Source: Candidatus Parcubacteria bacterium (GTDB lineage Bacteria > Patescibacteriota > Minisyncoccia > UBA6257 > JAGOQP01). From it: 64,000 nt of DNA. This document shows, piece after piece, positions 8,280 to 48,794 of the stretch. Below the pieces are notes generated by a model. That model searched no databases and was not told where the DNA came from. It saw only the letters and a list, made by a program, of their open reading frames with translations. The translations under genes and the position numbers were made by a program. Positions within the stretch are counted from its first letter, which is position 1, and each line of letters opens with the position of its first letter. Location of the stretch: assembly GCA_025999395.1 (NCBI GenBank), contig AP024682.1, forward strand, positions 468,680 to 532,679. Direction: 5' to 3'.

Positions 8280-10151
8280 ATGAAAAAAGAAAAAGAATCA
8301 AAAGCAAAAGAACGCGAAAAAAAACTTCATTGCATCCGCCATTCTTTATCTCATTTACTTGCAGCGGCGGTTTTAGAAAAATGGCCGCAGGCAAAATTAG
8401 CAATTGGTCCAGTAATTGAAAATGGTTTTTATTATGATTTCGATTTCAATTATTCGTCTCAAAAAAGAAAAAGTGCTTTCCCTCAAAAAGTTTTAACCGA
8501 AGAAGATCTGCCTCAATTGGAAAAAAGAATGCGAGAATTAGCTCAACAAAATCTTTGTTTTATTAAGGAAAAAATTAGTTATCCGGAAGCCAAAAAAATA
8601 TTTGCTGATGCTCCCTATAAATTAGAGTTAATAGAAGAAATCCACAAGAAAAAACTCCCCCTCTCTATTTATAAAACAATCACCTGTGAAAAATCTAAAA
8701 ACAAAAATCAATCAAAGGGGAATCTAATTTTCTTGGATCTGTGCTCGGGTCCTCATGTAAAAAATACTCGCGAAATTAATCCTCAAGCCTTTAAGCTTAC
8801 TACAATCGCCGGTGCTTATTGGAGAGGAGATGAAAAAAATAAAATGCTTACTCGAATTTATGGAGTAGCTTTTGAAACCAAAGAAGAATTAGAAACCTAC
8901 CTTAAAAATCAAGAAGAGGCTCAAAAAAGAGACCACCGAAAATTAGGCAAAGAGCTAAAAATCTTTACCTTCAGCGATTTTGTTGGACCGGGATTACCGT
9001 TGTGGCTTCCCAATGGCGCTATTTTAATTGAAGAATTAGAAAAGTTAGCCAAAGAAAAAGAAGAAGAGGCTGGTTACTTGCGAGTTCGCACTCCTCACAT
9101 TGCTAAAGAAATTATGTATAAAACCTCCGGGCATTTACCTTATTACGCTGACTCAATGTATCCGCCCATGGTCTTAGAAGAAAACGGCAAAAAGGAGGTT
9201 TATTATCTAAAGGCAATGAATTGTCCTCACCATCATCAAATTTATGCCTCTGAACCTAGAAGTTATCGCGATTTGCCTTTACGCTTAGCAGAGTACGGAA
9301 CTTGCTATCGCTACGAGAAAAGCGGGGAACTTTTTGGATTGATGAGGGTTCGCTCTCTTCAAATGAACGACGCTCATATTTATTGCACTGAAGAACAATT
9401 CCAAGAAGAGTTCTTGGCGGTAATAAAAATGTATTTGGAGTATTTTAAAATCTTTGACATTAAAAAATATGTCATTCGCTTAAGTACTCACAGCAAAGAA
9501 GGATTAGGAAAAAAATATATTGACAACGAAAGACTTTGGAAAAAAACTGAAAAAATGGTGCGAGACATTCTTAAAAAAGAAAATATCCCTTTCATTGAAG
9601 TTCCTAATGAAGCAGCTTTTTATGGACCAAAAATCGATGTTGAAATTTGGAGCGCCATCGGAAAAGAGTTTACTTTAGCCACTAATCAGGTTGATTTTGC
9701 GGTGCCGGCTCGCTTTGGTTTAACCTACAAAGATAAAGACGGAAAAGAAAAAACTCCACTCTGTATTCATCGCGCTCCTCTTTCTACCCACGAGCGCCTT
9801 ATAGGATTTTTAATTGAGCACTACGCCGGAGCTTTTCCTTTATGGTTAGCTCCTACTCAGGTAGAAGTCTTGCCAGTTTCTGAAAAACATTCAAGCTATG
9901 CTCAGAAAATAGCTCAACAAATGAAAGAGGAAAGAATTAGAGTTAGGGTTAGCGAAAGCGCAGAAACCTTGGGCAAAAGGATCCGCCAATCAGAAATTCA
10001 GAAAATCCCCTACCTTTTGATTGTTGGAGATAAAGAAAAAGAAAATAATTCTGTTAATGTCAGAAGTTATCAGAAGGGACAATTGGGAGAAATGAAATTA
10101 GAAGCTTTTATTAAAAAAGCTTTAGAGGAAATAAGGAAAAGAGCCTCTTAA
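8280..10151 (+). CDS. thrS: threonyl-tRNA synthetase
   Basis: Class II aaRS core with CPHHHQIY and HRKLGKELKIF motifs, C-terminal anticodon-binding domain. Confidence 0.9.
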   Translation: MKKEKESKAKEREKKLHCIRHSLSHLLAAAVLEKWPQAKLAIGPVIENGFYYDFDFNYSSQKRKSAFPQKVLTEEDLPQLEKRMRELAQQNLCFIKEKISYPEAKKIFADAPYKLELIEEIHKKKLPLSIYKTITCEKSKNKNQSKGNLIFLDLCSGPHVKNTREINPQAFKLTTIAGAYWRGDEKNKMLTRIYGVAFETKEELETYLKNQEEAQKRDHRKLGKELKIFTFSDFVGPGLPLWLPNGAILIEELEKLAKEKEEEAGYLRVRTPHIAKEIMYKTSGHLPYYADSMYPPMVLEENGKKEVYYLKAMNCPHHHQIYASEPRSYRDLPLRLAEYGTCYRYEKSGELFGLMRVRSLQMNDAHIYCTEEQFQEEFLAVIKMYLEYFKIFDIKKYVIRLSTHSKEGLGKKYIDNERLWKKTEKMVRDILKKENIPFIEVPNEAAFYGPKIDVEIWSAIGKEFTLATNQVDFAVPARFGLTYKDKDGKEKTPLCIHRAPLSTHERLIGFLIEHYAGAFPLWLAPTQVEVLPVSEKHSSYAQKIAQQMKEERIRVRVSESAETLGKRIRQSEIQKIPYLLIVGDKEKENNSVNVRSYQKGQLGEMKLEAFIKKALEEIRKRAS

Positions 10152-10186
10152 GAAATTTCTGCCTAAAATTTCTCTTCGGTTTTCTT

Positions 10187-11146
10187 ATGAAAAGTAAGCA
10201 GGAAGAAGAAAGGAAGGTAATTGTTATTGTTGGGCCAACGGCCAGTGGAAAATCGGATTTAGCTGTAAAAATTGCTAAGTTTATTAATCGTTTTCAAAAA
10301 AAGTTTGCAGTTGCTGGCGCAGAAATTCTTTCAGCTGATTCAAGGCAAATCTATAAAGGACTTGATTTAGTTTCCGGTAAGGTCCCCAAAGAAAAAGGAA
10401 AAAAGGATTACTACTATCAAGAAATTAAGCATCACCTTTTGGATATTGCTTCCCCTAAAAAAACTTTTTCTGTAGCTCAATACCAAAAGAAAGGAAAAGA
10501 AATTATTGAAAAACTTTTTAAAGAAAATAAGATCCCTATTATTTGTGGGGGAACGGGATTTTATATTGATTCTTTAATTTATAATTTAAGCTTTCCCGCT
10601 GTTAAACCTCAACCTAAATTAAGAAAAAAATTAGAAAAACTTTCTCTGCAAGAGCTTTATCAAAAATTAAAAAAATTAGATCCTCAAAGAGCTCAAACTA
10701 TTGATAAATTTAATAAAAGAAGATTAATCAGAGCTTTAGAAATTGTTCTTGCCACCCAAAAACCAATCCCTCCTTTAAAAAAAGAGAGGATTTTTAACAC
10801 TTTAAAAATAGGAATTCTAATCGAAAAAAAAGAACTTTCAAAAAAAATTCTTAAAAGAATTAAGAAAAGAATCAACCAAGGAATGATTAAAGAGGTTCAG
10901 CGACTTCATCGACAAGGGCTTTCCTGGAAGCGATTAGAAAGTTTTGGGTTGGAACTTAAATGGATCTCTCTTTATCTTCAGAAAAAAATTAGCCTCTATC
11001 AAATGATAAATAATCTCCTTAAAGACATTTGCCAATATGCCAAAAGACAAATGACTTGGTGGAAAAAAGAAAAAGATATTCACTGGATTCCTTTTTCAGA
11101 AAAAAAGAAAGCCCTTGATTTAGTCAAGAGCTTTCTTTTAAATTAA
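10187..11146 (+). CDS. miaA: tRNA dimethylallyltransferase
   Basis: P-loop VIVIVGPTASGKSDLAV and ILSADSRQIYKGLDLVSGK motifs. Confidence 0.9.
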   Translation: MKSKQEEERKVIVIVGPTASGKSDLAVKIAKFINRFQKKFAVAGAEILSADSRQIYKGLDLVSGKVPKEKGKKDYYYQEIKHHLLDIASPKKTFSVAQYQKKGKEIIEKLFKENKIPIICGGTGFYIDSLIYNLSFPAVKPQPKLRKKLEKLSLQELYQKLKKLDPQRAQTIDKFNKRRLIRALEIVLATQKPIPPLKKERIFNTLKIGILIEKKELSKKILKRIKKRINQGMIKEVQRLHRQGLSWKRLESFGLELKWISLYLQKKISLYQMINNLLKDICQYAKRQMTWWKKEKDIHWIPFSEKKKALDLVKSFLLN

Positions 11147-11631
11147 TCGCTCTCTTTATTTTGATTTTCTTCCTCTGTTTGAGGGTTTTCTTTTCTTTCT
11201 CTCATTCGCCCCTCAATCTTCCGGCTTAATTTATTAGTTATTAGAGTTATTCTACTTAATAGATTTAGCAATCTTTCAGCTCCCATCATATTTATTGCTT
11301 GATCAATTTTATTTGAATCATTCCAGCTATAAACTAAACTTAAGAAATTTTCCAAAACTTCTCTGGTTTTTTCCTGTAGTCGCCTTTCCCTTTCCTCTTG
11401 AATATCAGAGTAAAGTTTCTCTAATAATTCGGCTATTTGAGTTAGTTGAGTGTCGGTTATTTTTTCTTTCATTTTTTTCACCTCCCGCTCTTCACTTCTG
11501 TCAGAGCCTCTTAAAATATCCATCAAATTAAATAATTCTTGCTCAATTCCCTCCAAATTAACTGGTAAAGATTCTTTTTCTTCTCTTTCCAAATTACCGC
11601 TAAAGCCTATTTCTCTATGAGTCATAATCAA
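11143..11631 (-). CDS. hypothetical protein, acidic and coiled-coil rich (162 aa)
   Basis: Complete ORF with no recognisable motif; overlaps the miaA stop by 4 nt; first gene downstream of the 82-aa ORF. Confidence 0.5.
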   Translation of the reverse strand: MIMTHREIGFSGNLEREEKESLPVNLEGIEQELFNLMDILRGSDRSEEREVKKMKEKITDTQLTQIAELLEKLYSDIQEERERRLQEKTREVLENFLSLVYSWNDSNKIDQAINMMGAERLLNLLSRITLITNKLSRKIEGRMRERKENPQTEEENQNKESD

Positions 11632-11636
11632 AAAAT

Positions 11637-11885
11637 TTAGTTCTTATTCTCTAAACTTGCTTGCCATTGATCAAGATCTTCTTTTGAAATTTTCCCTCTT
11701 TTAAATAACTCTTCAGCTACTTTCTTTAATTCTTCTTTTAACTCTTCATCAGTTAATTCACTAAGCTCGGCAATTCCTTCTCTAACTTTAAGTATCTCTC
11801 TTTGAGCAGTTACTTCTTGCTCAGCTGTTATTTTTCGCTCTTCTTGATTAGATTGATTGTTATTCATCAAATTTTCCATATTCAT
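11637..11885 (-). CDS. hypothetical small coiled-coil protein (82 aa)
   Basis: ORF packed 5 nt from the next gene; N/Q-rich N-terminus then a charged helix. Confidence 0.45.
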   Translation of the reverse strand: MNMENLMNNNQSNQEERKITAEQEVTAQREILKVREGIAELSELTDEELKEELKKVAEELFKRGKISKEDLDQWQASLENKN

Positions 11886-11981
11886 ATTAATATATTAATA
11901 ATAAAGTTTAATAATAATTTATTTTGCGACCATTTTAAAAACTAACACTTTAATTCATTAACTTAATTCTTTTTTATTCAT

Positions 11982-12830
11982 TTATTCATTTCTTATCTTG
12001 AGCCGCTTTTCTAAATGCTTTAATACCAAATCACCTCTTTTTAAAGCCATCTCCGGAGTTAACAAGCGTGTTTTTTTTAATTCATCCATTATTTCATTTT
12101 TAAATTTCAAAAATGATTCATCAAAAATATATTGGGGTATATCATAATAAGAATTTTCGTCATAAATAATTCTTTTATATAACTTAACCACTTTTTCCAT
12201 AATTTCCCCCAAAGAAAGAACGCCCTCTTGAGATAATCTAGCTGCTTTTGTATAAGGATCAGAAGTTGATTTTTCCCAGTATGAATCACTAAAAACAAAC
12301 CCTCTTAAAAATCCTTCCCAAATTTCAAATCTCAATGTTTTGTAGATAACCTCACTCATAGATTCCTTCTTTGACGAAGGCTCCCATTCTCCTATTCTTT
12401 CTTCTATAACTTTTTCCGCCTCCTTCCAAATCTCTTCCAATCTTTTCATTTGTATTTCTCTATTAGAAGGAATCTTTCTCTCAAAAATTAAAAATATATA
12501 ATTTTTAAGCAAATTTAAAAAAGTTCGATAATAACCCTCCTTTTCGCTACGTCCCCTGCCCCGTGTTCTGAAGAAAATTTCTCTTAAAGCCTCACTGAGT
12601 TCATCAATTTTTGATTCCAAAAAATTAGGATTCAATTCCTCTCCTCCGCGAATAAGATGTTCAATGTAATTTATCAGATCAGAGCCACCGAGAATAGATA
12701 AATTTTTCTTTACTATTTGAAGCTCATAATCGGGAAGCTGGAGTCCAACATTTGCAAGGGCAATATCTTCAATGTTTTTTTTCTGAGATCCTCCTCCTCC
12801 CTCATTGAAATGAAAATATAAAGCGCTCAT
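11982..12830 (-). CDS. hypothetical protein (282 aa)
   Basis: Long ORF with no family recognised; about 30% GC, a little below the housekeeping neighbours. Confidence 0.55.
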   Translation of the reverse strand: MSALYFHFNEGGGGSQKKNIEDIALANVGLQLPDYELQIVKKNLSILGGSDLINYIEHLIRGGEELNPNFLESKIDELSEALREIFFRTRGRGRSEKEGYYRTFLNLLKNYIFLIFERKIPSNREIQMKRLEEIWKEAEKVIEERIGEWEPSSKKESMSEVIYKTLRFEIWEGFLRGFVFSDSYWEKSTSDPYTKAARLSQEGVLSLGEIMEKVVKLYKRIIYDENSYYDIPQYIFDESFLKFKNEIMDELKKTRLLTPEMALKRGDLVLKHLEKRLKIRNE

Positions 12831-12854
12831 ATTTTGTTTATTGTAAATTATTTT

Positions 12855-14306
12855 TTAATCTGTTTCCTTTCTTTTTAATTCTTCAAAAATTGAGTGGATA
12901 ATTTTGGGATTAGCTTTGCCTTTTGTTTCCTTCATCACTTGGCCGATTAAGAATTGCAAGGCATTTTCCTTTCCATTTTTGTAATCATACCATACTTTTT
13001 GATTTTTGTCAATAACTAAGCGAGCAATCTTTTCTAACTGATTCTCATCCGAAACCTGCTCCAAATTGCCAGCCGCAATTACTTCCTGAGGAGAAGAGCC
13101 CTCCTCAAAGACTTTAGCTAATACATCTTTCGCTACTCGACTAGAAATTTTTCCATTTCCCGCTAAAGAAACAAGATAAGCCAAATCCTTAGGCTTAAGT
13201 TTTGAGTTTTCAAGAAGAGTGCCCTTTTCTTTTTCTAAGCCCTTCACATCAGAAACAAGATAGTTATAAACCAAATTAATATCCGCTTCTTTATTCAAGC
13301 TTTTCAACTCAGAAACTGCTTCCTCAAAAAAGTCAGCTAAATAAGGGTTTTCAACTAAAACTTGACTTTTCTTTTCTGAAAGGTTGTATTCTTTTTCAAA
13401 TCTTTCTCTTTTTTCTTGAGGAAGTTCTTCTATTTTTGATCTTATTTCTTCAATCATCTCAGCGCTTAAAGAAAAAGGAGGTAGATCTGGCTCAGGAAAA
13501 TAACGATAATCGTGAGCCTCTTCTTTACTGCGTTGAGAAAAAGTTTCTTCTTTTATTTCATCCCACCCTCGAGTTTCCTGAACTACTTGATGACCTTTTT
13601 CCAGCAAATCAATTTGTCTTTTAATTTCATAATCTATTGCTTTAGCAAGAGCACGAAAAGAATTTAAGTTCTTTACTTCTACTTTAGTTCCTAACTCATT
13701 CGAATTTTGAGAAACAGAAATGTTAGCCTCTAATCTTAAATTCCCCTTTTCCATATCTGCTGCCGAAACCTTAAGATAACGCAAGATAAGTTGTAGTTCT
13801 TGAGCAAATTCAACCACCTCTTGAGCTGAGGAAAAATCTGGCTCAGTCACTAATTCCATTAAAGGCACTCCCGCTCGATTAAAATCGACCAAACTATGTT
13901 TACCATCAGGAGAATGAAAAAGCTTAGCGGCGTCTTCTTCCAAATGAATTCGACGAATCCCTATTCTTTTTTTAAGAAACGGCAAAATTAAAAAACCTTG
14001 ATAACAAAAAGGTTGATCATACTGACTAATCTGATAAGCTTTAGGCAAATCAGGATAAAAATAATTTTTTCTATCAAATTTAGAAAAATGATTGATTCTA
14101 CAATTTAAAGCCAGACCCGTTTTAATAACCAATTCAATTGCCTTCCAGTTGGCTTTAGGAAGGGTTCCCGGATGTCCTAAACAAATAGGACAAACATTAA
14201 TATTGGGTTCAGTTTCAAGAGGATCGTTTTTACAATCACAAAACATCTTGCTTTCTGTCAGAAGCTCAGCATGAATTTCTAAACCAATAGTTGGGTAATA
14301 TTTCAT
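12855..14306 (-). CDS. gatB: Asp-tRNA(Asn)/Glu-tRNA(Gln) amidotransferase subunit B
   Basis: MKYYPTIGLEIHAEL N-terminus, CDC/CPICLG zinc motifs, GatB/YqeY tail. Confidence 0.95.
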   Translation of the reverse strand: MKYYPTIGLEIHAELLTESKMFCDCKNDPLETEPNINVCPICLGHPGTLPKANWKAIELVIKTGLALNCRINHFSKFDRKNYFYPDLPKAYQISQYDQPFCYQGFLILPFLKKRIGIRRIHLEEDAAKLFHSPDGKHSLVDFNRAGVPLMELVTEPDFSSAQEVVEFAQELQLILRYLKVSAADMEKGNLRLEANISVSQNSNELGTKVEVKNLNSFRALAKAIDYEIKRQIDLLEKGHQVVQETRGWDEIKEETFSQRSKEEAHDYRYFPEPDLPPFSLSAEMIEEIRSKIEELPQEKRERFEKEYNLSEKKSQVLVENPYLADFFEEAVSELKSLNKEADINLVYNYLVSDVKGLEKEKGTLLENSKLKPKDLAYLVSLAGNGKISSRVAKDVLAKVFEEGSSPQEVIAAGNLEQVSDENQLEKIARLVIDKNQKVWYDYKNGKENALQFLIGQVMKETKGKANPKIIHSIFEELKRKETD

Positions 14307-14370
14307 AATTAAAAAATCAAATTCTAACTCACTTCAAATATTTATTCATTCTTTCAAAAAAGCAGAGAAA

Positions 14371-14997
14371 CTACAAGTATTCTGCTAAAGAAACTTTTGT
14401 TTTTTCAAAAACTTCTTGAGGAGTTCCATTTCCATCAATTATCTCAAACCCCTGAAAATGTCTTCCGATATTCAAGTAGGCTTCTCTCACCAATCTTTGT
14501 CTTTCTAAAGTTTCAAAATAAGTTTTTTCCTCTCCTCTTTTTTCTATTCGCCCCAAAGCAATATCAGGGCTGACATCAAAAAATAAAGTTTTGGCAGGTA
14601 AAATAAAATCCTTACCGATAATCTGCTTGTGATAATCAAAAAGGGTTTTCCAGTGAAGACTTTTATCTAAACTTCCATAAGCTAAAGTAGAAAGAAAATA
14701 GCGATCACAAAAAACTAAATTTCCTTTTTTTAGCTGAGGTTTAATAAATTTTTCAATATGTTCCTTTCTATCCAAAATATAAAGCAATTGAAGATCTCTT
14801 AAAGAAAAATCGGTAATTTTCCCTGAAAGAATTTCATCTATTTTCTGAGACCAATGGCTTTCTCGGGTATGTTCAAAAGTAAAAACAACATTTGTTCTTT
14901 GTCTTTTTTGAAAGTAATCTTTTAGCATTTCTATTTGGGTTCCCTTACCTGAGCCGTCTATTCCTTCAAAAACAACAAAGTTTCTTTCAGTTACCAT
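14371..14997 (-). CDS. tmk: thymidylate kinase
   Basis: FVVFEGIDGSGKGTQ P-loop and DRY motif. Confidence 0.9.
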   Translation of the reverse strand: MVTERNFVVFEGIDGSGKGTQIEMLKDYFQKRQRTNVVFTFEHTRESHWSQKIDEILSGKITDFSLRDLQLLYILDRKEHIEKFIKPQLKKGNLVFCDRYFLSTLAYGSLDKSLHWKTLFDYHKQIIGKDFILPAKTLFFDVSPDIALGRIEKRGEEKTYFETLERQRLVREAYLNIGRHFQGFEIIDGNGTPQEVFEKTKVSLAEYL

Positions 14998-15067
14998 AAG
15001 TCCATTATAACAAAAACAGCCTTCTCAAAAAAGCAGGCTGTTTAAAATTTAAGTTTGAAAAACATTT

Positions 15068-15520
15068 TTATTCGTTTCTTACTTCAATCCCCATTGAGCG
15101 AGCGGTCCCCTCGACAATTTTCATCGCTGCTTCAATATCGGTGGTATTTAAATCGGGCATTTTCTTTTCAGCAATTTTTCTTACATCCTCTTTGGTTACA
15201 AACCCCACTTTATTTCTCAAAGGATCGCCAGAGCCCTTTTCAATTCCTACCCCTCCCCCTCCTTTAAGAGAACGAGCGGCTTTCTTTAATAAATCGGAAA
15301 CTGGCGGGGTTTTTAGCTGAAATTCAAAGGTTCTATCTTCATAGATTGTAATTACCGCAGGAATCACACTGCCTGCCATTTCTTTGGTGGCTTCATTAAA
15401 TTGCTGACAAAACTGCCCTAAGTTAATTCCGTAAGGACCCAAAGCGGTTCCTACTGGAGGAGCTGGGGTAGCGCTAGCTGCTGGAAGTTGAATTTTTATT
15501 ACTGCCTTAATTGGTTTCAT
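15068..15520 (-). CDS. rplK: 50S ribosomal protein L11
   Basis: [22 protein letters not shown] signature. Confidence 0.95.
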
Positions 15521-15569
15521 ATTTTCTAAAAAAATAACAAATAATCTTTAAAAAAGCAATGAATAACTA

Positions 15570-16184
15570 CTAGACTTTTTGCAATTGGAGAGAATCAATT
15601 TCTACTACCGTTTCTCTTCCAAAAATAGGGATGGCTACTTTGACTCTTCCTCTTTCCTCGTCCACCTCCAACACCTTTCCTTCATAATCCTTAAAAGGAC
15701 CATCTATAATTTTTACCAAATCTCCTGCCGAGTAATCAATTCTAAACTTCATCTCTTTCTCTTTATTATCGCTGATAAAAGAAAGTAGATAATTTACCTC
15801 TTCTTGAGAAAGAGGAGTGGGCTTCGTGGGATCTGGACCAACAAAGCCCATTACTCGCGGAGTGTTTCTTACAACATACCACGAATCTTCAGTTAAGTTC
15901 ATTTCTACCAAAACATAGCCGGGATAAACTTTTTCTTCAACAATCTTCTTTTTACCGTTTTTAATCTTAATCTTCTTCTCTTTAGGAACAACAACATTAA
16001 AAATTTTGTCACCCATCGAAAGAGATTCGACTCGTTGCTTTAAATAGCGAGCCACTGCGTCTTCATAGCCAGAATAGGTATGAATAGCATACCAACGACG
16101 CTGATCTCTTTCCTTATCAGTGACTTGCAAATCTCTTTCCTTTTTTTCTTCGGCTGTTTCTTTAGCTTTATTTTTTTCTTCCAT
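15570..16184 (-). CDS. nusG: transcription termination/antitermination factor NusG
   Basis: WYAIHTYSGYE NGN domain and C-terminal KOW (VKIIDGPFKDYEGKV); secE-nusG-rplK synteny. Confidence 0.9.
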   Translation of the reverse strand: MEEKNKAKETAEEKKERDLQVTDKERDQRRWYAIHTYSGYEDAVARYLKQRVESLSMGDKIFNVVVPKEKKIKIKNGKKKIVEEKVYPGYVLVEMNLTEDSWYVVRNTPRVMGFVGPDPTKPTPLSQEEVNYLLSFISDNKEKEMKFRIDYSAGDLVKIIDGPFKDYEGKVLEVDEERGRVKVAIPIFGRETVVEIDSLQLQKV

Positions 16185-16206
16185 TTTTACTTTCTTAATT
16201 ACTTAA

Positions 16207-16416
16207 TTAAAAGTGAAGATTAAAAATCAGTTGCTCTAAACCATAAGAAAAGATAATATCCAAGACTCCCAAAAAAATAGCCAAAGCCACAGAAAAACCT
16301 AACACAATCAAGGTTAGTTTGGTTACTTCTTTTCGAGTAGGCCAGTTCACTTTCTTTACTTCCTGCCATGACTCCAAAAGATAGTTTTTTAATCTAGAAA
16401 TCATATTTTCAAACAA
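16207..16416 (-). CDS. secE: preprotein translocase subunit SecE
   Basis: KNYLLESWQEVKKVNWPTRKE followed by a single TM helix, 69 aa, upstream of nusG. Confidence 0.8.
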   Translation of the reverse strand: MFENMISRLKNYLLESWQEVKKVNWPTRKEVTKLTLIVLGFSVALAIFLGVLDIIFSYGLEQLIFNLHF

Positions 16417-16433
16417 AGTTTATTAATTTATTT

Positions 16434-16453
16434 AAAAACCGCCTTGGGGCGGC
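16434..16453 (-). terminator. rho-independent terminator downstream of gyrB (minus strand)
   Basis: Minus-strand hairpin CCGCC-CCAA-GGCGG followed by TTTTT. Confidence 0.5.
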
Positions 16454-16515
16454 TCACTTTTAATTTATCAAGATTTAAAGCTTGTGTCAAATTTATTTTT
16501 AATATTATATCAACC

Positions 16516-18561
16516 CTAAATATCTAAGTTCTTCACCATTACCGCTCGACTTTGAATAAAATGTTTTCTGGGTTCTACTTTTTCTCCCATTAAAATATCA
16601 AACATTCGATCAGCTTCTTGAGCGTCAGCAATGGTAACTTGCCGCAAAATTCTTGTCTCGGGATTCATCGTTGTTTCCCATAACTGCTGAGGATTCATTT
16701 CCCCTAAACCCTTGTAGCGCTGAATGTTGATATTTAAGGAAGATTCTGGTGATTCCTTTGCTTCCTTTTGATCGTCTTTCTTAGTTTTTTTACTAACAGT
16801 TTCCTGATGCTTTTTAGTTATTTGCTCGATGATTTTATCTTTTTCCGCGTCTGAATAAGCATACCAAAACTCCTTTCCTTTTTGGATTTTGTATAAAGGC
16901 GGTTGAGCAATGTAAAGATAACCCCTTTCTATTACTTCTCTAAAATAGCGGTAAAAAAGAGTTAAAAGCAGGGTTCGAATATGAGCGCCATCAACATCAG
17001 CATCAGTCATAATAATAATCTTGTGATAGCGAATTTTGTCGGGGTTAAAGTCATTACCAATTGCCGCTCCCAAAGCAATTACTAAAGACTTAATCTCGTT
17101 ATTAGCAAGCATTTTATCCAAGCGCGCTTTCTCGACATTTAAAATTTTTCCTCGCAAAGGCAAAACTGCTTGAAAGCGTCTGTCCCGCCCTTGCTTTCCA
17201 CTTCCTCCCGCTGAATCACCTTCTACGATAAATAATTCTGATTCAGAAGGATCTTTAGAAATACAATCTGCTAATTTACCCGGCAACGATAAACCTTCCA
17301 AAGGCCCGCGTCTTAAAACGGTTTCTTTAGCGGCTTTAGCGGCTCGTCGAGCTTTGGCAGCTAAAAGACATTTAGCAATAATATTTTTGGCAGAGGAAGG
17401 ATTTTTTTCAAGAAATTCTTTAAGCGCCTCAGAAACAACGGATTCGGTAGCGGTTCGAGCAGAAGGATTTCCTAATCGCGCTTTGGTTTGCCCCTCAAAT
17501 TGAGGCTCTTTAATTTTTATAGAAACAATGGCTACTAAACCTTCTCTAACATCATCTCCAGTTAGATTTTCTTCTTTTTCCTTAATGTAACCATTTTGAC
17601 GAGCGTAATCGTTTAAAACTCTGGTTAAAGCCGAACGAAAACCAGTTAAATGAGTTCCCCCATCAGAAGTATAAATATTGTTAGCAAAACTTAGTTCTTG
17701 AATTTCGGTGTCATTACTATAAACAAAAGCCGCTTCTACCTGAATAGTTTCTGCCTTTTTAGAAGCTGGTGCTTCTTCGGCAAAAACAAAATCTTTACTG
17801 ACATAAAAAGGAACCTCCTGAATAACTTCAGTAAATTCAGTTAAATAATCCAAAAAAGAAAGCAAGCCTCCTTCAAAATAAAAAGCATAATAATCAACCG
17901 CTTCCTCTCTTTCATCAATGACTTCAATTTTTACTCCCTTCACCAAAAAAGCTTGCTGACGAAGATGATCGATGATTTTCTTTTTATCAAATTCAATTTT
18001 GGAAAAAATTTCTTTATCTGGTTGAAAGGTAACGATGGTTCCGGTTTTAGAAGAAGTTCCTACCTTTTTTAATTTATACTGAGGAACCCCTCTTTTATAC
18101 TCTTGAACATAAATTCCCCCATCTCTTTCCACTTCTACTTTCATCCAAGAAGAAAGAGCATTAACCACCGAAACTCCTACGCCGTGAAGTCCTCCGGCAA
18201 CTTTATAAGATTCGCCTCCAAACTTTCCACCAGCATGAAGAGTACAAAGCACCGTTTCAAGAGCTGATTTTTTAGTTTGAGGATGAATATCCACTGGAAT
18301 TCCTCTTCCATCGTCTGTTACCCTTACTTTGTTTTCCTTAAGAAGTTCAACTCGAATATTTTTAGCAAAACCAGCCATTGCTTCATCAATAGAGTTATCT
18401 ACCACCTCCCAAATTAAATGATGAAGGCCATCTACACCGGTGGAGCCAATATACATTCCCGGTCTTTTGCGAACCGGCTCTAAACCTTCCAAAACATAAA
18501 TATCCTTGGCAGTATAAGTGCTTGTCTTTTGAGTATTTTTTTCTTCTTTATTTTTATCCAT
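16516..18561 (-). CDS. gyrB: DNA gyrase subunit B
   Basis: GHKL ATPase motifs (EVVDNSIDEAMAG, GLHGVGVSVVNALS), Toprim (IVEGDSAGGS), C-terminal EGDSA tail. Confidence 0.95.
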   Translation of the reverse strand: MDKNKEEKNTQKTSTYTAKDIYVLEGLEPVRKRPGMYIGSTGVDGLHHLIWEVVDNSIDEAMAGFAKNIRVELLKENKVRVTDDGRGIPVDIHPQTKKSALETVLCTLHAGGKFGGESYKVAGGLHGVGVSVVNALSSWMKVEVERDGGIYVQEYKRGVPQYKLKKVGTSSKTGTIVTFQPDKEIFSKIEFDKKKIIDHLRQQAFLVKGVKIEVIDEREEAVDYYAFYFEGGLLSFLDYLTEFTEVIQEVPFYVSKDFVFAEEAPASKKAETIQVEAAFVYSNDTEIQELSFANNIYTSDGGTHLTGFRSALTRVLNDYARQNGYIKEKEENLTGDDVREGLVAIVSIKIKEPQFEGQTKARLGNPSARTATESVVSEALKEFLEKNPSSAKNIIAKCLLAAKARRAAKAAKETVLRRGPLEGLSLPGKLADCISKDPSESELFIVEGDSAGGSGKQGRDRRFQAVLPLRGKILNVEKARLDKMLANNEIKSLVIALGAAIGNDFNPDKIRYHKIIIMTDADVDGAHIRTLLLTLFYRYFREVIERGYLYIAQPPLYKIQKGKEFWYAYSDAEKDKIIEQITKKHQETVSKKTKKDDQKEAKESPESSLNINIQRYKGLGEMNPQQLWETTMNPETRILRQVTIADAQEADRMFDILMGEKVEPRKHFIQSRAVMVKNLDI

Positions 18562-18674
18562 AGGAATTTATTAACAAAAGAAAACTTCCTTCCTCAGGAA
18601 GAATCTAACTTAAGTATAACAAAAAACAAAAAGAAAAACAATTAAAATATTAAGTCAAAAAGCCTTGTTTTTGC

Positions 18675-19721
18675 TTATTTTTTTGCTAGCCACGGATAGA
18701 GTTTAGGCAAGTTTTCGAGAATGATATTCTTTGTTTCTTCTAAGGATTTTTTTACCACCGCTCCCGCTGCTAGTTTATGACCTCCGCCCCCTAAAAGCGC
18801 TGCCAATTGAGAAAGATCGACCCCAACATCTTCCTGCGCTCTCAAACTTACTTTAATAATTCCTTCCTCTTTTTCTATCAAAGTAATCACAATCTTCCAC
18901 TCCGCTACCAACTGCAATTCATCACTAACATTATTCAAAGAGATAATTTTTTTATCCACTCCGCTTTTTTCCAAATCTTTTAAAGTAATCTCAGAAATAA
19001 CCACTTGGCCATCAAAAAGAATTTCTAAATTGTTATAAGCCAAGCTTCTTAATTTGAGTATTTCTTTGTTTAATTTTTTCCTAGTAGCTTGAAAAACTTT
19101 TCTAAAGTCAGGATAAAGTCTTGCTAAAAAACAAGCAATCTCTAGTGTTTCTAAGCTGGTTTTATCGTATTGAAAGCCGCCGGTATCAGCATAAATACCC
19201 GCTAAAAGACAAGCCGCGATTTCAGGAGTAATTGTTATCCCCCACTCTTTAAAAAGATCATGAAGCATTTGGCAAGTAGCTGGGTAAGAAGAATCAATAA
19301 GATTGATGTCCCCAAAACCACTATTAGAATCGTGATGATCAATCACAATAGTTTTTAAATTGGAGGGAAAGGTTACTTTATTAAGTTGAGAAATCATCTC
19401 GGGACTGGCGCTGTCTAAAATGATAAAAAGATCAAATTCCTCTAAATTTACCTCAAAAAAATTTTTTTCTTCAATTTCTTTAAATCCGGGTAAAAAAGAG
19501 AGATTTTTCAAAACGCCCGAATCTCCTGAGATAACCACCGCTTTTTTACCAAGCCCCAAAAGAGCTTGATACATAGCCAAAGCACTGCCTACGCTGTCTT
19601 CATCAGGAAAAGGATGGCAATGAAGAAGAATCTTGCGAGAGTTTTTAATAGTTTCAAGAAGTTGAGAAGAAAGAAGAGGTGAAATTTTAGTCATAAAATC
19701 TTTGAATTTACAAGTAACCAC
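18675..19721 (-). CDS. nrnA: DHH-family phosphoesterase, NrnA-like bifunctional oligoribonuclease/pAp phosphatase
   Basis: DHH motif (IVIDHHDSN), DHHA1 GGGGH motif near the C-terminus. Confidence 0.75.
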   Translation of the reverse strand: MVTCKFKDFMTKISPLLSSQLLETIKNSRKILLHCHPFPDEDSVGSALAMYQALLGLGKKAVVISGDSGVLKNLSFLPGFKEIEEKNFFEVNLEEFDLFIILDSASPEMISQLNKVTFPSNLKTIVIDHHDSNSGFGDINLIDSSYPATCQMLHDLFKEWGITITPEIAACLLAGIYADTGGFQYDKTSLETLEIACFLARLYPDFRKVFQATRKKLNKEILKLRSLAYNNLEILFDGQVVISEITLKDLEKSGVDKKIISLNNVSDELQLVAEWKIVITLIEKEEGIIKVSLRAQEDVGVDLSQLAALLGGGGHKLAAGAVVKKSLEETKNIILENLPKLYPWLAKK

Positions 19722-20368: not shown

Positions 20369-20394
20369 GATTAGCAAATTAAGAATTTAACTTG

Positions 20395-20468
20395 GGAGGC
20401 TAAGCGGATTTGAACCGCTGCTAACAGGGCCACAACCTGTTGTGCTACCGGGCTACACCATAGCCTCC
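20395..20468 (-). tRNA. tRNA-His (GTG) with encoded G-1
   Basis: Hand-folded cloverleaf: anticodon loop TTGTGGC, G-1 pairs with C73 (a His identity element), T-loop TTCAAAT. Confidence 0.8.
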
Positions 20469-20550
20469 ATCATTTTTTCTTGATTTTACGCTATTTATTG
20501 ATAAAATCAAGAAAGCACAACAAATTCGTTTCTAGTAAAAACAAATTTGA

Positions 20551-20623
20551 GCCCCCGTAGCTCAATGGATAGAGCAGGTCCCTTCTAAGGACAAGATGAG
20601 GGTTCGATTCCTTCCGGGGGCGC
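20551..20623 (+). tRNA. tRNA-Arg (TCT)
   Basis: GCCCCCG acceptor, D-arm GCTC/GAGC, anticodon loop CTTCTAA, T-loop TTCGATT. Confidence 0.75.
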
Positions 20624-20686
20624 TTTTTTTATTGATTTTTTTTCATTCAATTGATATCTTTAAAAAGTAATTGAAAACAAAAAATT

Positions 20687-20761
20687 GCCGCGGTAGCTCA
20701 GTGGTAGAGCGCATGCCTGAAGAGCATGGCGTCGGGGGTTCGATTCCCTCCCGCGGCACCA
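20687..20761 (+). tRNA. tRNA-Phe (GAA), CCA encoded
   Basis: GCCGCGG acceptor, anticodon stem CATGC/GCATG with loop CTGAAGA, T-loop TTCGATT, 3' CCA. Confidence 0.85.
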
Positions 20762-21352
20762 ATGACAAAAAAACAAAAAAATAAACTTGTTTTTATTTTT
20801 ATCACCGGAAATAAAAATAAAGTTCTTGAAGCTCGTCAAATTCTCAAGGATTTCGAAATAAAACAATGTACCCTCAATCTTCCCGAAATTCAAAGCTTAA
20901 AGGTAGAAGAAGTTGTTAAAGAAAAAGCAAAAGAAGCTTTCAAGATAGTTAAAAAACCAGTTCTGGTTGAAGACACTAGTCTTGAAATCAAAGCTTGGAA
21001 TAACTTTCCGGGAGCATTAATTAAGTTTCTTTTAGAAAGTGTTGGGGTGCAAGGAATTATAAAAATGCTTTCTGGAGAAAAAAATCGCTTTGCTGTTGCC
21101 AAAACAGCGCTTGGTTTATACGATGGAAAAAATTTAAAGGTTTTTGTTGGAAAGATTGAAGGAACTATTTCCAAAAAAGTCTCTGGTAAAAAAGGATTTG
21201 GCTGGGACTCAATTTTTATCCCCCAAGGATTAAAAAAAACTTTCGCTCAAATGAATTCCGAAGAAAAAAACTCTCTTTCTATGAGAAGAAAAGCTCTTGA
21301 AAAAATGGAAAGGTATTTAATTAAAGTAAAGAAAAACACTTTAAAAAATTAA
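20762..21352 (+). CDS. rdgB: non-canonical purine NTP pyrophosphatase (RdgB/Ham1 family)
   Basis: FITGNKNK, EDTSLEI..NNFPGAL, GFGWDSIFIP and SMRRKAL motifs; ATG immediately follows the tRNA-Phe CCA; the longer track ORF from 20726 would overlap the tRNA. Confidence 0.8.
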   Translation: MTKKQKNKLVFIFITGNKNKVLEARQILKDFEIKQCTLNLPEIQSLKVEEVVKEKAKEAFKIVKKPVLVEDTSLEIKAWNNFPGALIKFLLESVGVQGIIKMLSGEKNRFAVAKTALGLYDGKNLKVFVGKIEGTISKKVSGKKGFGWDSIFIPQGLKKTFAQMNSEEKNSLSMRRKALEKMERYLIKVKKNTLKN

Positions 21353-21397
21353 GAGATTGAAATTGTTTTCTTTTTTGATAAATTTATAAGAGCAATT

Positions 21398-21468
21398 CGG
21401 GCCGTAGTGTAATGGTAGCACGAGTCCTTTGGGAGGATTTAGTCCGAGTTCGAATCTCGGCGGCCCGA
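21398..21468 (+). tRNA. tRNA-Pro (TGG)
   Basis: CGGGCCG acceptor pairing with CGGCCCG, anticodon loop TTTGGGA, A73 discriminator. Confidence 0.75.
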
Positions 21469-21475
21469 CAAAAAT

Positions 21476-21502
21476 AAAAACCTTCATTGATGAAGGTTTT
21501 TT
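21476..21502. terminator. bidirectional terminator hairpin between convergent tRNA-Pro and tRNA-Ala
   Basis: AAAAA-CCTTCA-TTGA-TGAAGG-TTTTTT. Confidence 0.6.
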
Positions 21503-21509
21503 AATTATG

Positions 21510-21583
21510 TGGACCCGATCGGGCTCGAACCGACGACCTCCTCGATGCCATCGAGGCGCTCTAGCCAACTGAGCTACGGGCCC
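21510..21583 (-). tRNA. tRNA-Ala (GGC)
   Basis: GGGCCCG acceptor with a G3:U70 wobble (the Ala identity element), anticodon loop ATGGCAT, T-loop TTCGAGC. Confidence 0.75.
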
Positions 21584-21679
21584 TTTTGAAAATTTAAGAA
21601 AATTTGATTTTACTAAAATAAATAATACAATAAGAGAAAATCAATTTCAACACAAAAAAGATAATCGGATTTTTTAAGA

Positions 21680-21754
21680 GCCCCCGTAGTTCAACGGATA
21701 GAACAGATCCGTCCTAAGGATAAAATGGAAGTTCGATTCTTCCCGGGGGCACCA
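21680..21754 (+). tRNA. tRNA-Arg (CCT), CCA encoded
   Basis: Close paralog of the Arg-TCT gene; anticodon loop GTCCTAA; 3' CCA. Confidence 0.75.
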
Positions 21755-21758
21755 AAAA

Positions 21759-21846
21759 GGAGGGTTGGCAGAGTGGTCGAATGCGCCGCACTCGAAATGC
21801 GGTTGGGGACAAAATCCCCTCAGAGGTTCGAATCCTCTACCCTCCG
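21759..21846 (+). tRNA. tRNA-Ser (CGA), class II with long variable arm
   Basis: GGAGGGT acceptor, anticodon stem CCGCA/TGCGG with loop CTCGAAA, variable arm GGGGACAAAATCCCC, G73. Confidence 0.8.
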
Positions 21847-21929
21847 CTGATTTTAAGCCTAAAAAGAAGCCTTTTAAAAAACATTATGTTATACTTTTAT
21901 TAATTGAATTTTGTTTTAAACTTTTCACT

Positions 21930-33555: not shown

Positions 33556-35105
<1,550 letters not shown>

Positions 35106-46832: not shown

Positions 46833-48602
46833 TTAACGAATCTTCTCTAAAATTTCAAGAAGAAGAGATTTGGCCGATTCCAAAACACTCGCCATTTGAC
46901 CTTCAATTGAATCACTAGAAGAATTTTGCTCTAATTTTTCTTCACCTGTTTCTCCTACATTTACACTAATACTAGTTTTTGCACTAGCTCCTTTGTCATC
47001 AGTTACTGTAAATGTTGGGTTATAGATTCCCGCTTTACTATAAGAATGAGTAAAGGTTGCTGATTGCTGGAAGGAAGCAGAAGAAGGAGCTGCTTGCATT
47101 CCTGTTGCTGTAGCTTCATCTCCCCAAATTACCGAATAACGCAAACTTCCATTTTCTGGATCAGAAGCTTTAACTGTCCAGGTTCCCTGTTGATTAACTG
47201 AAAGAGTAGTTGGACCATCAACTTCATGAATTACTGGAGGTTGATTAGCGGTGGTAGTGCCGCTTGTAATTTTGAAGTAACCGTCACTAGAATCACATCT
47301 ATCGTTTGTCTCACTTTGACAAACTTGAATTCTATAAGAACCATCAGGTGCTATAATGCTTGTACCACTATAATTTATAACCTTGCCAACCGACCACTTG
47401 TACGAAAAACCTTCTACTTTTTTAGCAATAACATAAGGCATGACAGCATACATCGGACAAACGCTTCCTGTACAAGGCTGAAATTCCGGAATTAACCTGA
47501 TATCCCAGAATTTTGGTGCTGGAGGAGAACATTCGGCTCCCGATGGGCAGCTTGGCACAGGTGTATTATCTCGCCAGTTAATTACTTGCGTTGTTCCCTT
47601 TACCCAAGTTTCTCCTCCGTTAGGAGAAAGAACAGTAACAACAGAAGAGGTAGGTAAAGAAGACCCCTCGTAAGCTTCAACCTCATAAGCTACAAGGCCG
47701 TTAAAGCCGCCTTCCAATTTTATGTATTCAAGATACCCCTTAATCACTACTTGCTGATTTTCCAGCTTTTTAAGTTTTTCTAAAACATTATCATTAGCCG
47801 CTTTGACACGATAAAGTACCGATACTGGCAAACAAGGAGCTTTTACACAAATAACCTGCTCTTGTGTGGAAAGAGTGTGGGTTCCCCACATATAAATACT
47901 TGGTTCCGCTGCCTTCAAGAAACCAATAAATCTCTTCATCATTCCCCTTTCCAATGGTGGTTGTGAAGGAGTAATTCCTCCTGTTTCGGGAGGCATTACT
48001 TTTGGTGGAACACCCGGAGAAATTGTTTCACAGCCATACAATGCATTTAACTTTGCTCGAGTTGATTTACCAACAAGCCCAGTAGGATATTTTAATCCCA
48101 AAGGATCAAGAATTTCGCTGCGATATTTTTCTTGAAAACCACTTACTGCTGACGCAGTCGCTTCGCCAAACACTCCTGATTCTCTTTCTTCTCTTAAATT
48201 AAAACCCTCAGCTTCTAAAATTCTTTGAAGAGCTAAAACTGCCTCGCCCCGGCTTCCTAAAGAAAGATTAAAGTTAAAGTTATAACACAATCGGTTATCC
48301 CTCGAAGGAGGAACAACAACTCCCATCGGTGGCACTTTTGTTGCCGAGGAATCAAAAGTTTTTCCTTCTTCTTTTAAAGAATCTTCCTTACCCCCTTCTC
48401 TTACAGGCGGTCCCAAAAAGATGGGAGTTTTCAATGAGGCTCGCACCTGCTGAAGTTGAGCTTGTAGTTGAGAAACCATTCTCATTAATTCTTGAATTTT
48501 TGCCTCCAAAGAAGTTAGCTCACTTTGAGCAAAGGCTTTCCCTTGAAAGAAAGCTACACCCAAGCCAAGAACAATTACAAAAAACAAAAATTTTTTAGTC
48601 AT
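46833..48602 (-). CDS. secreted protein with peptidoglycan-binding domain and C-terminal Ig/PKD-like region
   Basis: Signal peptide; PG_binding_1-like LGSRGEAVLALQRILEAEGF..GVFGEATASAVSGFQ; beta-rich C-terminus. Confidence 0.6.
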   Translation of the reverse strand: MTKKFLFFVIVLGLGVAFFQGKAFAQSELTSLEAKIQELMRMVSQLQAQLQQVRASLKTPIFLGPPVREGGKEDSLKEEGKTFDSSATKVPPMGVVVPPSRDNRLCYNFNFNLSLGSRGEAVLALQRILEAEGFNLREERESGVFGEATASAVSGFQEKYRSEILDPLGLKYPTGLVGKSTRAKLNALYGCETISPGVPPKVMPPETGGITPSQPPLERGMMKRFIGFLKAAEPSIYMWGTHTLSTQEQVICVKAPCLPVSVLYRVKAANDNVLEKLKKLENQQVVIKGYLEYIKLEGGFNGLVAYEVEAYEGSSLPTSSVVTVLSPNGGETWVKGTTQVINWRDNTPVPSCPSGAECSPPAPKFWDIRLIPEFQPCTGSVCPMYAVMPYVIAKKVEGFSYKWSVGKVINYSGTSIIAPDGSYRIQVCQSETNDRCDSSDGYFKITSGTTTANQPPVIHEVDGPTTLSVNQQGTWTVKASDPENGSLRYSVIWGDEATATGMQAAPSSASFQQSATFTHSYSKAGIYNPTFTVTDDKGASAKTSISVNVGETGEEKLEQNSSSDSIEGQMASVLESAKSLLLEILEKIR

Positions 48603-48794
48603 ATTTTTAATTAAAAATAATCAATAATAAAAAGTTAAGTTGAATAAATTTAAAAACGACCTTTGAAAAATCATTTTGAAGATTATAGCAGAATGCCTAA
48701 ATTTTACTACTTCCCTCTATAAAAACCAATATTCTGCTCTCGGTAGTGAATAAAAATCTCCCTATAATATAAATGTCAAGGGTTAGTTAACGTT

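Follow-up and report, generated by a model that had tools for sequence, protein, structure and literature searches.

Genes that are confined to single lineages and have no assigned function are abundant in the Patescibacteria, in which 45,788 of 54,343 lineage-specific clusters of this kind are species-level clusters in the AGNOSTOS classification (Vanni et al. 2022, PMC9132574). Species-restricted genes of this kind are the rule in the group, and the three adjacent genes described here had already been deposited as hypothetical proteins. They resemble the 'unknown' clusters of that study (PMC9132574) in being domainless, in having a CPR host with a small genome and in lacking homologues outside a narrow lineage. 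These clusters represent a statistical category, unlike a functional family, and membership is silent on mechanism.

Gene organisation and distribution

The trio was found in the window, a 64,000-nt stretch of contig AP024682.1 from Candidatus Parcubacteria bacterium, between gatB and miaA. The genes, their immediate neighbours and the terminator are as follows.

12855..14306, minus strand: gatB, upstream of g282 in the same presumed transcription unit and ending 24 nt before it
11982..12830, minus strand: g282, coding for a 282-aa orphan protein (NCBI KatS3mg098_474)
11637..11885, minus strand: g82, coding for an 82-aa acidic protein with an N/Q-rich N-terminus (KatS3mg098_473, pI 4.7)
11143..11625, minus strand: g160, coding for a 160-aa acidic protein predicted to be helical (KatS3mg098_472, pI 5.0)
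11095..11139, minus strand: intrinsic terminator, a 16-bp hairpin (11139..11103) followed by a U-rich tail, 4 nt past the g160 stop
10187..11146, plus strand: miaA, the convergent neighbour of the trio

An earlier note on this DNA had described three same-strand ORFs at 11143-12830, and all three are indeed present on the minus strand, downstream of tmk-gatB and convergent with miaA. The flanking genes are identified by profile matches (miaA as IPPT, 2.7e-63; gatB, 3.8e-115), with tmk and thrS further out. Alternative ATG codons of g82 would give products of 80 or 76 aa, of which the 80-aa form is the NCBI call, while g160 comprises 160 aa if translation begins at the ATG at 11625 and 162 aa with the TTG at 11631 as start. 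The g282 and g82 genes are separated by 96 nt, and the g82 stop lies 11 nt from the g160 ATG (5 nt if the TTG is the start). The TTAA at 11143-11146 forms the overlapping stop codons of g160 and miaA. No terminator was found between gatB and g282. The terminator behind g160 is strong, with a folding energy of -21.9 kcal/mol (z = -4.4), and none of 200 shuffles was equally good. It sits inside the final codons of miaA; its G.U pairs form in the minus-strand RNA only, and a strain variant at 11130 gives one extra G.U pair. An Rfam scan of the cassette yielded nothing beyond sub-threshold hairpin matches at this terminator.

Searches with the three proteins against Pfam, NCBIfam, PHROGs, PADLOC and PDB sequences gave nothing above threshold, in agreement with the earlier statement that the trio has no recognisable domains; homology to housekeeping families was likewise not found. 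An exhaustive hmmsearch with g282 over 1.84e9 representative proteins returned only the query itself. The g282 protein matched P0001 at 100%, with just one further cluster at 85% identity, and is present on one JGI contig. A word-index search of 5.8e9 proteins detected only strain variants, 80-100% identical (g82 80-100%, g160 98-100%); g82 and g160 were searched by this method alone, which remote homologues of short, biased proteins may escape. No relative was detected by phmmer --max and hhalign at 80 gatB loci of other genomes, and no paralogues occur within the window. All relatives come from nearly identical strains within a single lineage of Parcubacteria (NCBI MAG KatS3mg098) and always occur at the gatB/miaA locus. 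In the three independent assemblies that are long enough (L001, L088 and L089) the order is gyrB-secE-nusG-L11-tmk-gatB-282-82-160-miaA-thrS, and shorter strain contigs agree across the part that they cover.

The junction itself is far more widespread than its contents. The convergent gatB-miaA arrangement recurs in 19 retrieved Patescibacteria loci, where 15-1542 nt separate the two genes; the trio does interrupt a conserved stretch, as had been proposed. The ORFs occupying this slot in the 19 loci are unrelated, lineage-specific and mostly without a Pfam match, and in many Patescibacteria gatB directly abuts miaA, leaving the slot empty. The closest relatives carry unrelated small same-strand ORFs right after gatB. 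Positional orthology of the trio with the ORFs that fill the slot in its nearest relatives (among them L007, L008 and L019) was considered and rejected (phmmer --max E > 1, hhalign probability < 1%). The miaA-gatB interval is a junction conserved across Patescibacteria and a recurrent slot for lineage-specific genes. The trio in it is itself lineage-specific and not a set of widely syntenic genes with housekeeping homology, the case that would have refuted the earlier note.

Taken together, the trio probably represents species- or genus-restricted orphan coding genes in the variable gatB/miaA gap of a Parcubacteria genome of ~0.56 Mb, the host lineage being a single species-level group of very small Parcubacteria from hot springs. 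Judging from gene spacing and sequence, the trio would be co-transcribed with (tmk-)gatB and close the 3' end of that operon. Its products would be soluble, non-enzymatic, mostly alpha-helical cytoplasmic proteins. The trio may have originated by rapid divergence of older slot genes, or by lineage-specific gene birth or gain.

Coding evidence and the encoded proteins

The three genes are real and are under purifying selection. The dN/dS ratios are 0.18 for g282, 0.14 for g82 and 0.23 for g160. Across 15 strain sequences the trio is free of indels despite 13% variable columns, the one exception being a homopolymer slip in the g282 gene of strain sequence L006. In g282, 111 of 849 columns are variable, and 56 of 109 strain differences fall on codon position 3. 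In g82, 32 of 250 columns are variable, and a patch at 11776-11800 is replaced in L006 and L087. It is extremely unlikely that the ORFs are chance frames of intergenic DNA or of a long 3' UTR and not genes. Such an origin would account for the lack of homologues outside the lineage, the biased, E/K-rich composition and the missing Shine-Dalgarno motifs. However, an open frame of 282 codons would very rarely occur by chance in DNA of 32% GC, the low dN/dS, the third-position excess and the intact frames are those of coding sequence, and Shine-Dalgarno motifs are absent from the whole genome and not just from the trio. With no homologue found outside a narrow lineage (by exhaustive search for g282) and with real coding capacity, the trio belongs among the taxonomically restricted orphan genes of Patescibacteria.

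The lower GC content that had been ascribed to the trio is correct only in part. The three genes have 30.9, 32.4 and 32.7% GC, under the mean of 35.3 +/- 2.8% for the 56 ORFs of the window by 1-1.6 SD, but similarly low values hold for the flanking miaA (30.7%) and tmk (31.6%), and the GC3, codon usage and codon log-likelihood of the trio are average for window ORFs. The trio is native in composition, and all strains sampled have it fixed at the gatB/miaA locus; there is no sign that it was recently acquired by horizontal transfer.

The g282 protein is aromatic-rich, has a pI of 6.1 and is predicted to be all-alpha with ~13 helices; neither a signal peptide nor a transmembrane segment was predicted. 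Its AF2 model is all-helical (pLDDT 42). The AF2 model of g160 (pLDDT 62.5) shows a hairpin of two 42-residue helices (pLDDT about 60-80), and a Foldseek search of this model against the PDB gave no match at E below 1. Because both models are of low confidence, a recognisable fold may be hidden in them. The N-terminus of g82 is polar and probably disordered. The description of g82 and g160 as acidic coiled coils can be retained as regards acidity, and helices were modestly modelled for g160 alone; when a coiled coil is taken to require heptad hydrophobic periodicity sustained over at least 28 residues, the best-register a/d score does not exceed that of sequence shuffles (p = 0.24 for g82 and p = 0.34 for g160). 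The charged, acidic g82 and g160 proteins most likely bind each other or another partner, as their sequences and the spacing of their genes would suggest. Two weak resemblances were rejected: that of g160 to CPDase (2H-phosphoesterase; E = 0.0015, 18.7 bits against a cut-off of 21, HxT/S motifs absent), and that of g82 to uL29 (E ~0.06), which covers 24 residues of a low-complexity LS(D/E)EEL...ELF stretch. No RHH, HTH, AbrB or Phd/YefM DNA-binding domain was found in any of the three proteins with Pfam and NCBIfam.

The most variable part of the trio lies within g282.

12288..12602, minus strand: dimorphic core of g282 (aa 77-181), present as two allele classes

One class is found in L001-L005 and the other in the window, L006 and L087-L093. 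The alleles diverge by 24-30% per 100 nt, whereas the adjoining DNA is 94-100% identical. The core has a dS of 0.92, a dN of 0.19 and a dN/dS of 0.21, against a dN of 0.008 in the C-terminal part. An Arg/Gly-rich loop, RTRGRG(R/Y)S, is kept in both alleles. Conserved N- and C-terminal parts would flank a dimorphic four-helix core, which may form a partner-specific or otherwise polymorphic surface. The raised dS points to balancing selection or introgression; genes of conflict or specificity show such divergence more typically than bland accessory ones do, which counts against a plain accessory role. A target of a diversity-generating retroelement was rejected: the substitutions are nearly all transitions, occur in both directions and are not adenine-specific (A>G 36, G>A 32, C>T 22, T>C 14), all neighbouring genes share the transition bias (156:17), no template repeat was found in the window, and the dN/dS of the core is low. 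A one-off deaminase hypermutation was also rejected, the spectrum being symmetric and the same as the background. With its sharply bounded two-allele core, g282 could be a modest example on which to study balancing selection or the birth of genes where genomes are ultra-small.

The g282-g82 spacer and the palindrome

The interval between g282 and g82 contains three nested features.

11886..11981, minus strand: g282-g82 spacer, 96 nt, AT-rich, holding a promoter-like site and a 7-codon mini-ORF
11911..11939, minus strand: sigma-70-like promoter candidate, TTTAAA and TATTAT with a 17-nt spacer
11885..11900, no strand assigned: perfect 16-bp palindrome TATTAATATATTAATA, abutting the first g82 ATG

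None of the 96 columns of the spacer varies in any aligned strain sequence that reaches it, as compared with 4-5 mismatches per 150 nt in the flanks. Its RNA is unstructured (fold z = +1.1). The promoter candidate matches at 9 of 12 positions, and sites of this quality are no more frequent in the region than in shuffles. The AT-rich, invariant spacer probably supplies an internal promoter and an unstructured leader without a Shine-Dalgarno motif for the tightly spaced g82-g160 pair, as may be supposed from gene spacing and sequence.

The exact 16-bp palindrome reported at the g82 ATG, at 11885-11900, is present and occurs once in the window; it opens with the T of the g82 CAT/ATG and can also be read as two tandem copies of TATTAATA. 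Its proposed role as an operator finds a single point in favour, the invariance of the spacer. The window has 4 perfect palindromes of at least 16 bp, where a first-order Markov model predicts 2.7, and at least one arose in 91% of simulations, which is the chance level for an AT-rich window. Moreover, an 18-bp AT palindrome at 48602-48619 abuts, in identical geometry, the ATG of an unrelated PKD/PG-binding gene. The invariance of the spacer, palindrome included, could be a sign of a real operator; most likely, the palindrome is a by-product of the AT-rich leader sequence, and AT-only palindromes at start codons in the KatS3mg098 genome are compositional.

Alternative explanations and comparison with known systems

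Alternatively, g82 and g160 might encode a toxin and its neutraliser (or g282 might do so together with a small partner) in a novel toxin-antitoxin or anti-phage module autoregulated at the palindrome before g82, which we regard as unlikely. Both genes are small and their 11-nt junction is that of a small-gene pair, a feature that is non-specific; the palindrome lies between the promoter-like site and the ATG within the strain-invariant spacer; the dimorphic, high-dS core of g282 is of a kind often seen in specificity and conflict genes; and the trio occupies a variable slot and has no housekeeping homology. The conserved C-terminal helix of g282 also contains an Rx6H string (R265-H272), but such a string is to be expected by chance and no profile supports it, and its reading as a HEPN motif was rejected. 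However, none of the type II toxin superfamilies (RelE/ParE, MazF, VapC-PIN, HipA, Doc/Fic, HicA, HEPN, GNAT, Zeta and others) was matched at curated cut-offs in Pfam, NCBIfam or PADLOC, and the best matches to the PADLOC-DB v2 defence models (E 0.008-0.05) were to short coiled-coil-like stretches. Both small proteins are acidic, and the polar N-terminus of g82 carries no RHH, HTH or AbrB domain. The locus occurs once per strain and is fixed in a single lineage, not patchy as toxin-antitoxin and defence genes typically are. Variants of g282 and of g82 do not change together from strain to strain, and the palindrome is no more than chance would give, with the same geometry at an unrelated gene. 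In a broader form, the trio would be a hitherto undescribed module for conflict or specificity in an episymbiotic Parcubacterium, serving toxin/immunity, defence or host interaction, with the g282 alleles under balancing selection and with the spacer and palindrome controlling g82-g160; this, too, seems improbable. Insertion of a prophage or mobile-element remnant between gatB and miaA is far less likely still. The interruption of an otherwise conserved junction and the small, charged products of no assigned function, which are common in phages, would fit it, but PHROGs gave no significant match, IMG/VR no relatives and INPHARED only a non-significant best match (a helicase, E = 0.03). There is no integrase, no tRNA within 8 kb (the nearest is at 20394) and no flanking direct or inverted repeat, codon usage is native, and the trio would be part of a host operon, with a host-type terminator. 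These results, together with the occurrence of the trio at one place in all sampled strains and the lack of a DNA-binding domain in g82, speak against the acquired addiction, defence or phage module suggested in the earlier note, and the cassette is free of the signatures of such elements. That the trio is accessory and lineage-specific, in an otherwise conserved and often abutting junction, was borne out.

It is also unlikely that the trio encodes accessory factors, peculiar to the lineage, for the neighbouring tRNA and translation genes (GatB, MiaA, ThrRS), such as a GatC replacement or adaptor in GatCAB or an RNA-binding partner. The neighbourhood is tRNA-centred, g282 follows gatB closely, the stretch from gatB to g160 has one terminator, behind g160, and none in the gatB-g282 gap, and the Arg/Gly-rich loop is kept in both g282 alleles. 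The closest relatives too have unrelated same-strand small ORFs directly after gatB, and no gatC-like ORF was found in the window with a GatC sequence as query, which is a lead only. Nevertheless, a slot gene is not generally required, given the many Patescibacteria in which gatB abuts miaA, and the gatA and gatC genes may be located beyond the window. The identification of g82 as GatC was rejected: PF02686 is absent from its Pfam matches at E up to 1, and phmmer with that GatC sequence, again a lead only, found nothing. The usual order is gatC-gatA-gatB, and a position downstream of gatB is not usual for gatC.

Orphan coding genes in a variable slot thus remain the preferred reading, and the comparison with described systems is as follows. 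Like GatC of GatCAB, g82 encodes a small, acidic, presumably helical protein next to gatB; unlike GatC, it has no detectable sequence similarity to that family, and its slot is empty in many relatives. Like type II toxin-antitoxin modules, g82 and g160 are two small adjacent genes behind an AT-rich spacer with a palindrome beside the start codon; unlike them, the trio has no toxin or antitoxin domain or DNA-binding fold, is not patchy, multicopy or mobile, has two acidic small products and carries a palindrome at chance level. The cargo of classical integration hot spots belongs to mobile elements or defence systems and is accompanied by integrases or repeats, whereas the trio locus has none of these and its cargo would be wired into a host operon. 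The locus resembles the variable slots or hot spots between convergent core genes, in which the flanks are conserved and the cargo is unrelated and lineage-specific.

Gene content of the gatB-miaA interval

As claimed in the earlier note, three open reading frames, g282, g82 and g160, occupy window positions 11143-12830 between gatB and miaA; all three are on the minus strand. The features of the region are as follows.

8280-10151, plus strand, thrS (Pfam)
10187-11146, plus strand, miaA (Pfam)
11625..11143, minus strand, g160, ORF from an ATG (or from TTG 11631, giving 162 aa)
11885..11637, minus strand, g82, ORF with in-frame ATGs at codons 1, 3 and 7
12830..11982, minus strand, g282, ORF
14306..12855, minus strand, gatB (Pfam)
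14997..14371, minus strand, tmk (Pfam)

The g282 start follows the gatB stop by 24 nt, gaps of 96 and 11 nt separate g282 from g82 and g82 from g160, and the stop codons of g160 and miaA overlap in the tetranucleotide TTAA. The encoded proteins are 100% identical to KatS3mg098_474 (g282), _473 (g82) and _472 (g160), all annotated as 'hypothetical proteins' in a MAG that bears the name Candidatus Parcubacteria bacterium and has a longest contig of 561,860 bp.

The three ORFs are genes. In an alignment of the window with 14 contigs, taken from independent assemblies of close strains, 111 of 849 columns vary in g282, 32 of 250 in g82 and 14 of 483 in g160, and the single indel is an A7/A8 homopolymer slip in one Logan contig. 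Between the window and one of these contigs, L001, 56 of 109 differences in g282 fall at codon position 3. Nei-Gojobori dN/dS is 0.18 for g282, 0.14 for g82 and 0.23 for g160, and 0.07-0.11 for gatB, tmk and miaA; that the ORFs are non-coding is extremely improbable. The slip (contig L006 from SRR16588181, position ~567, window 12078) frameshifts the last ~28 codons of g282 and reflects either misassembly or a truncation confined to this strain; contig L087 carries the same g82 allele without this difference.

None of the proteins matched Pfam, NCBIfam, PHROGs, PADLOC or PDB sequences up to threshold (curated for the first four), in agreement with the reported lack of recognisable domains. Among 5.8 billion clustered proteins, g282 found two clusters (100% and 85% identity), g160 four (98-100%) and g82 four (80-100%), all from the same lineage. 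When a g282 profile was run exhaustively with HMMER against 1.84 billion representatives, the sole hit was g282. One contig was matched in JGI metagenomes. The description of g82 and g160 as acidic coiled coils holds for acidity (pI 4.7 and 5.0) and, in g160, for predicted helicity; the coiled coils are putative, with heptad periodicity no higher than in shuffled sequences.

Allelic variation in g282 and g82

The one unusual feature of the trio is the dimorphic core of g282. Over 12300-12600 (aa 77-181), divergence between two allele classes climbs to 24-30% per 100 nt; hardly any variation occurs in the last 100 residues, and identity between the classes is 94-100% in neighbouring DNA. The core has a dS of 0.92 and a dN/dS of 0.21, and its variation is therefore old or introgressed and constrained by purifying selection, rather than relaxed decay. 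With only two alleles, the pattern may stem from balancing selection or from one recombination tract. Substitutions in g282 comprise 104 transitions and 5 transversions (156:17 in neighbouring genes), with a symmetric spectrum; these patterns rule out a diversity-generating retroelement (DGR) and make one-sided deaminase hypermutation unlikely.

Across 10100-19000 the comparison with L001 is a mosaic: 15800-18000 has no mismatches at all, gatB differs by 4-10%, and g282 by as much as 30% per 100 nt. Transitions outnumber transversions 260:22 overall, an extreme bias shared by every gene, and the pattern suggests recombination together with a mutation spectrum prone to transitions. In g82, a patch at 11776-11800 (aa 29-37), which varies independently, is replaced in L006 and L087 (REILKVREG to KAKYEAEQE, with many transversions) and resembles a short tract of gene conversion with its donor outside the sampled strains.

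Probable transcription unit, spacer and palindrome

Between gatB and g282 there is no terminator-like site. Four nt past the g160 stop, a 16-bp hairpin (11139..11103) with a U-rich tail behind it folds in the minus-strand RNA; its stability (-21.9 kcal/mol, z = -4.4) was equalled in 0 of 200 shuffles. The DNA of the hairpin is also coding sequence of the convergent miaA, falling in its final 14 codons. The G.U pairs of the hairpin hold on minus-strand RNA only, as does a further one that arises through a strain variant at 11130. We infer that (tmk-)gatB-g282-g82-g160 is one transcription unit. A tRNA- or GatB-associated accessory role for the trio is improbable. Within the 3' end of g160 is a weak hairpin (11171-11185) that resembles a plus-strand terminator.

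The 96-nt spacer between g282 and g82 (11886..11981) has no variable columns in any strain covering it; against L001 it has no mismatches, with 4-5 per 150 nt in the flanks (P roughly 0.05). Its RNA is unstructured (fold z = +1.1), and its weak sigma-70-like site (11939..11911) is of a kind no commoner here than in shuffles. A 7-codon mini-ORF, ATGAATAAAAAAGAATTAAGTTAA (MNKKELS*; 11958-11981, minus strand), directly follows the g282 stop (TAAATG) and is as invariant as the remaining spacer. Shine-Dalgarno motifs are almost absent upstream of most window ORFs, whose starts are preceded by A/T-rich, unstructured sequence.

The 16-bp AT palindrome at the first ATG of g82 (11885-11900) is exact and unique in the window. 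Its reading as an operator fares less well: four perfect palindromes of at least 16 bp occur in the window against 2.7 expected, and at least one appears in 91% of Markov simulations. The same geometry recurs in an 18-bp perfect AT palindrome, TATTTTTAATTAAAAATA (48602-48619), abutting the ATG of a minus-strand gene (46833..48602) with PKD and peptidoglycan-binding domains. Spacer invariance, the one point in favour of the palindrome, is explained equally well by an operator and by constraint on a promoter or leader.

The junction in relatives and the origin of the trio

The strain contigs share the order gyrB-secE-nusG-L11-tmk-gatB-282-82-160-miaA-thrS, each over its covered part, and three (L001, L088 and L089) show it in full. 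Of 80 gatB loci taken from the representative genomes of GTDB species, the closest belong to a Wolfebacteria MAG (GatB identity 72%) and a Paceibacterota MAG (67%). A convergent miaA lies downstream of gatB in 19 of the 80, with gaps of 15, 19, 51, 68, 74, 82 and up to 1542 nt, the long ones filled by unrelated ORFs, including a DUF6941 protein and, in two cases, ordinary enzymes. The earlier note was thus right that the trio interrupts a conserved junction, which is a slot that lineage-specific genes have occupied repeatedly. The nearest relatives likewise have domain-less gap ORFs, unrelated to one another and to the trio:

L007, 7432-8436, gatB strand, ORFs of 136 and 186 aa
L008, 7458-7883, gatB strand, acidic ORF of 141 aa
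L019, 7571-8803, gatB strand, ORF of 410 aa

Gap ORFs of the gatB loci showed no resemblance to the trio (phmmer --max E > 1; hhalign probability < 1%).

The trio's GC (30.9-32.7%) is below the mean of 56 window ORFs (35.3 +/- 2.8%), but the flanking miaA (30.7%) and tmk (31.6%) are just as low, and both GC3 (21.7-26.9% against 26.2 +/- 3.7%) and codon-usage log-likelihood are average. There are no flanking repeats and no integrase, and the closest tRNA is 8 kb away. Nothing here supports an acquired, mobile or defence module, and a novel toxin-antitoxin or defence system is unlikely. A phage remnant is very improbable; IMG/VR gave no match and INPHARED nothing significant.

Elsewhere in the window, GC rises to 46-56% because of a complete 16S rRNA gene (33556-35104, minus strand); Rfam found no 23S or 5S rRNA in the 64 kb, so the rRNA genes appear unlinked. 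Seven tRNA genes (His, Arg-tct, Phe, Pro, Ala, Arg-cct and Ser) lie on both strands at 20394-21847; an ORF listed at 20726-21352 begins within tRNA-Phe, and its true start is therefore probably further downstream.

We consider it likely that the trio are ordinary taxonomically restricted orphan genes in the gatB operon, encoding soluble, non-enzymatic helical binding proteins. Of the 54,343 lineage-specific unknown clusters in a catalogue for Patescibacteria, 45,788 are restricted to the species level (PMC9132574).
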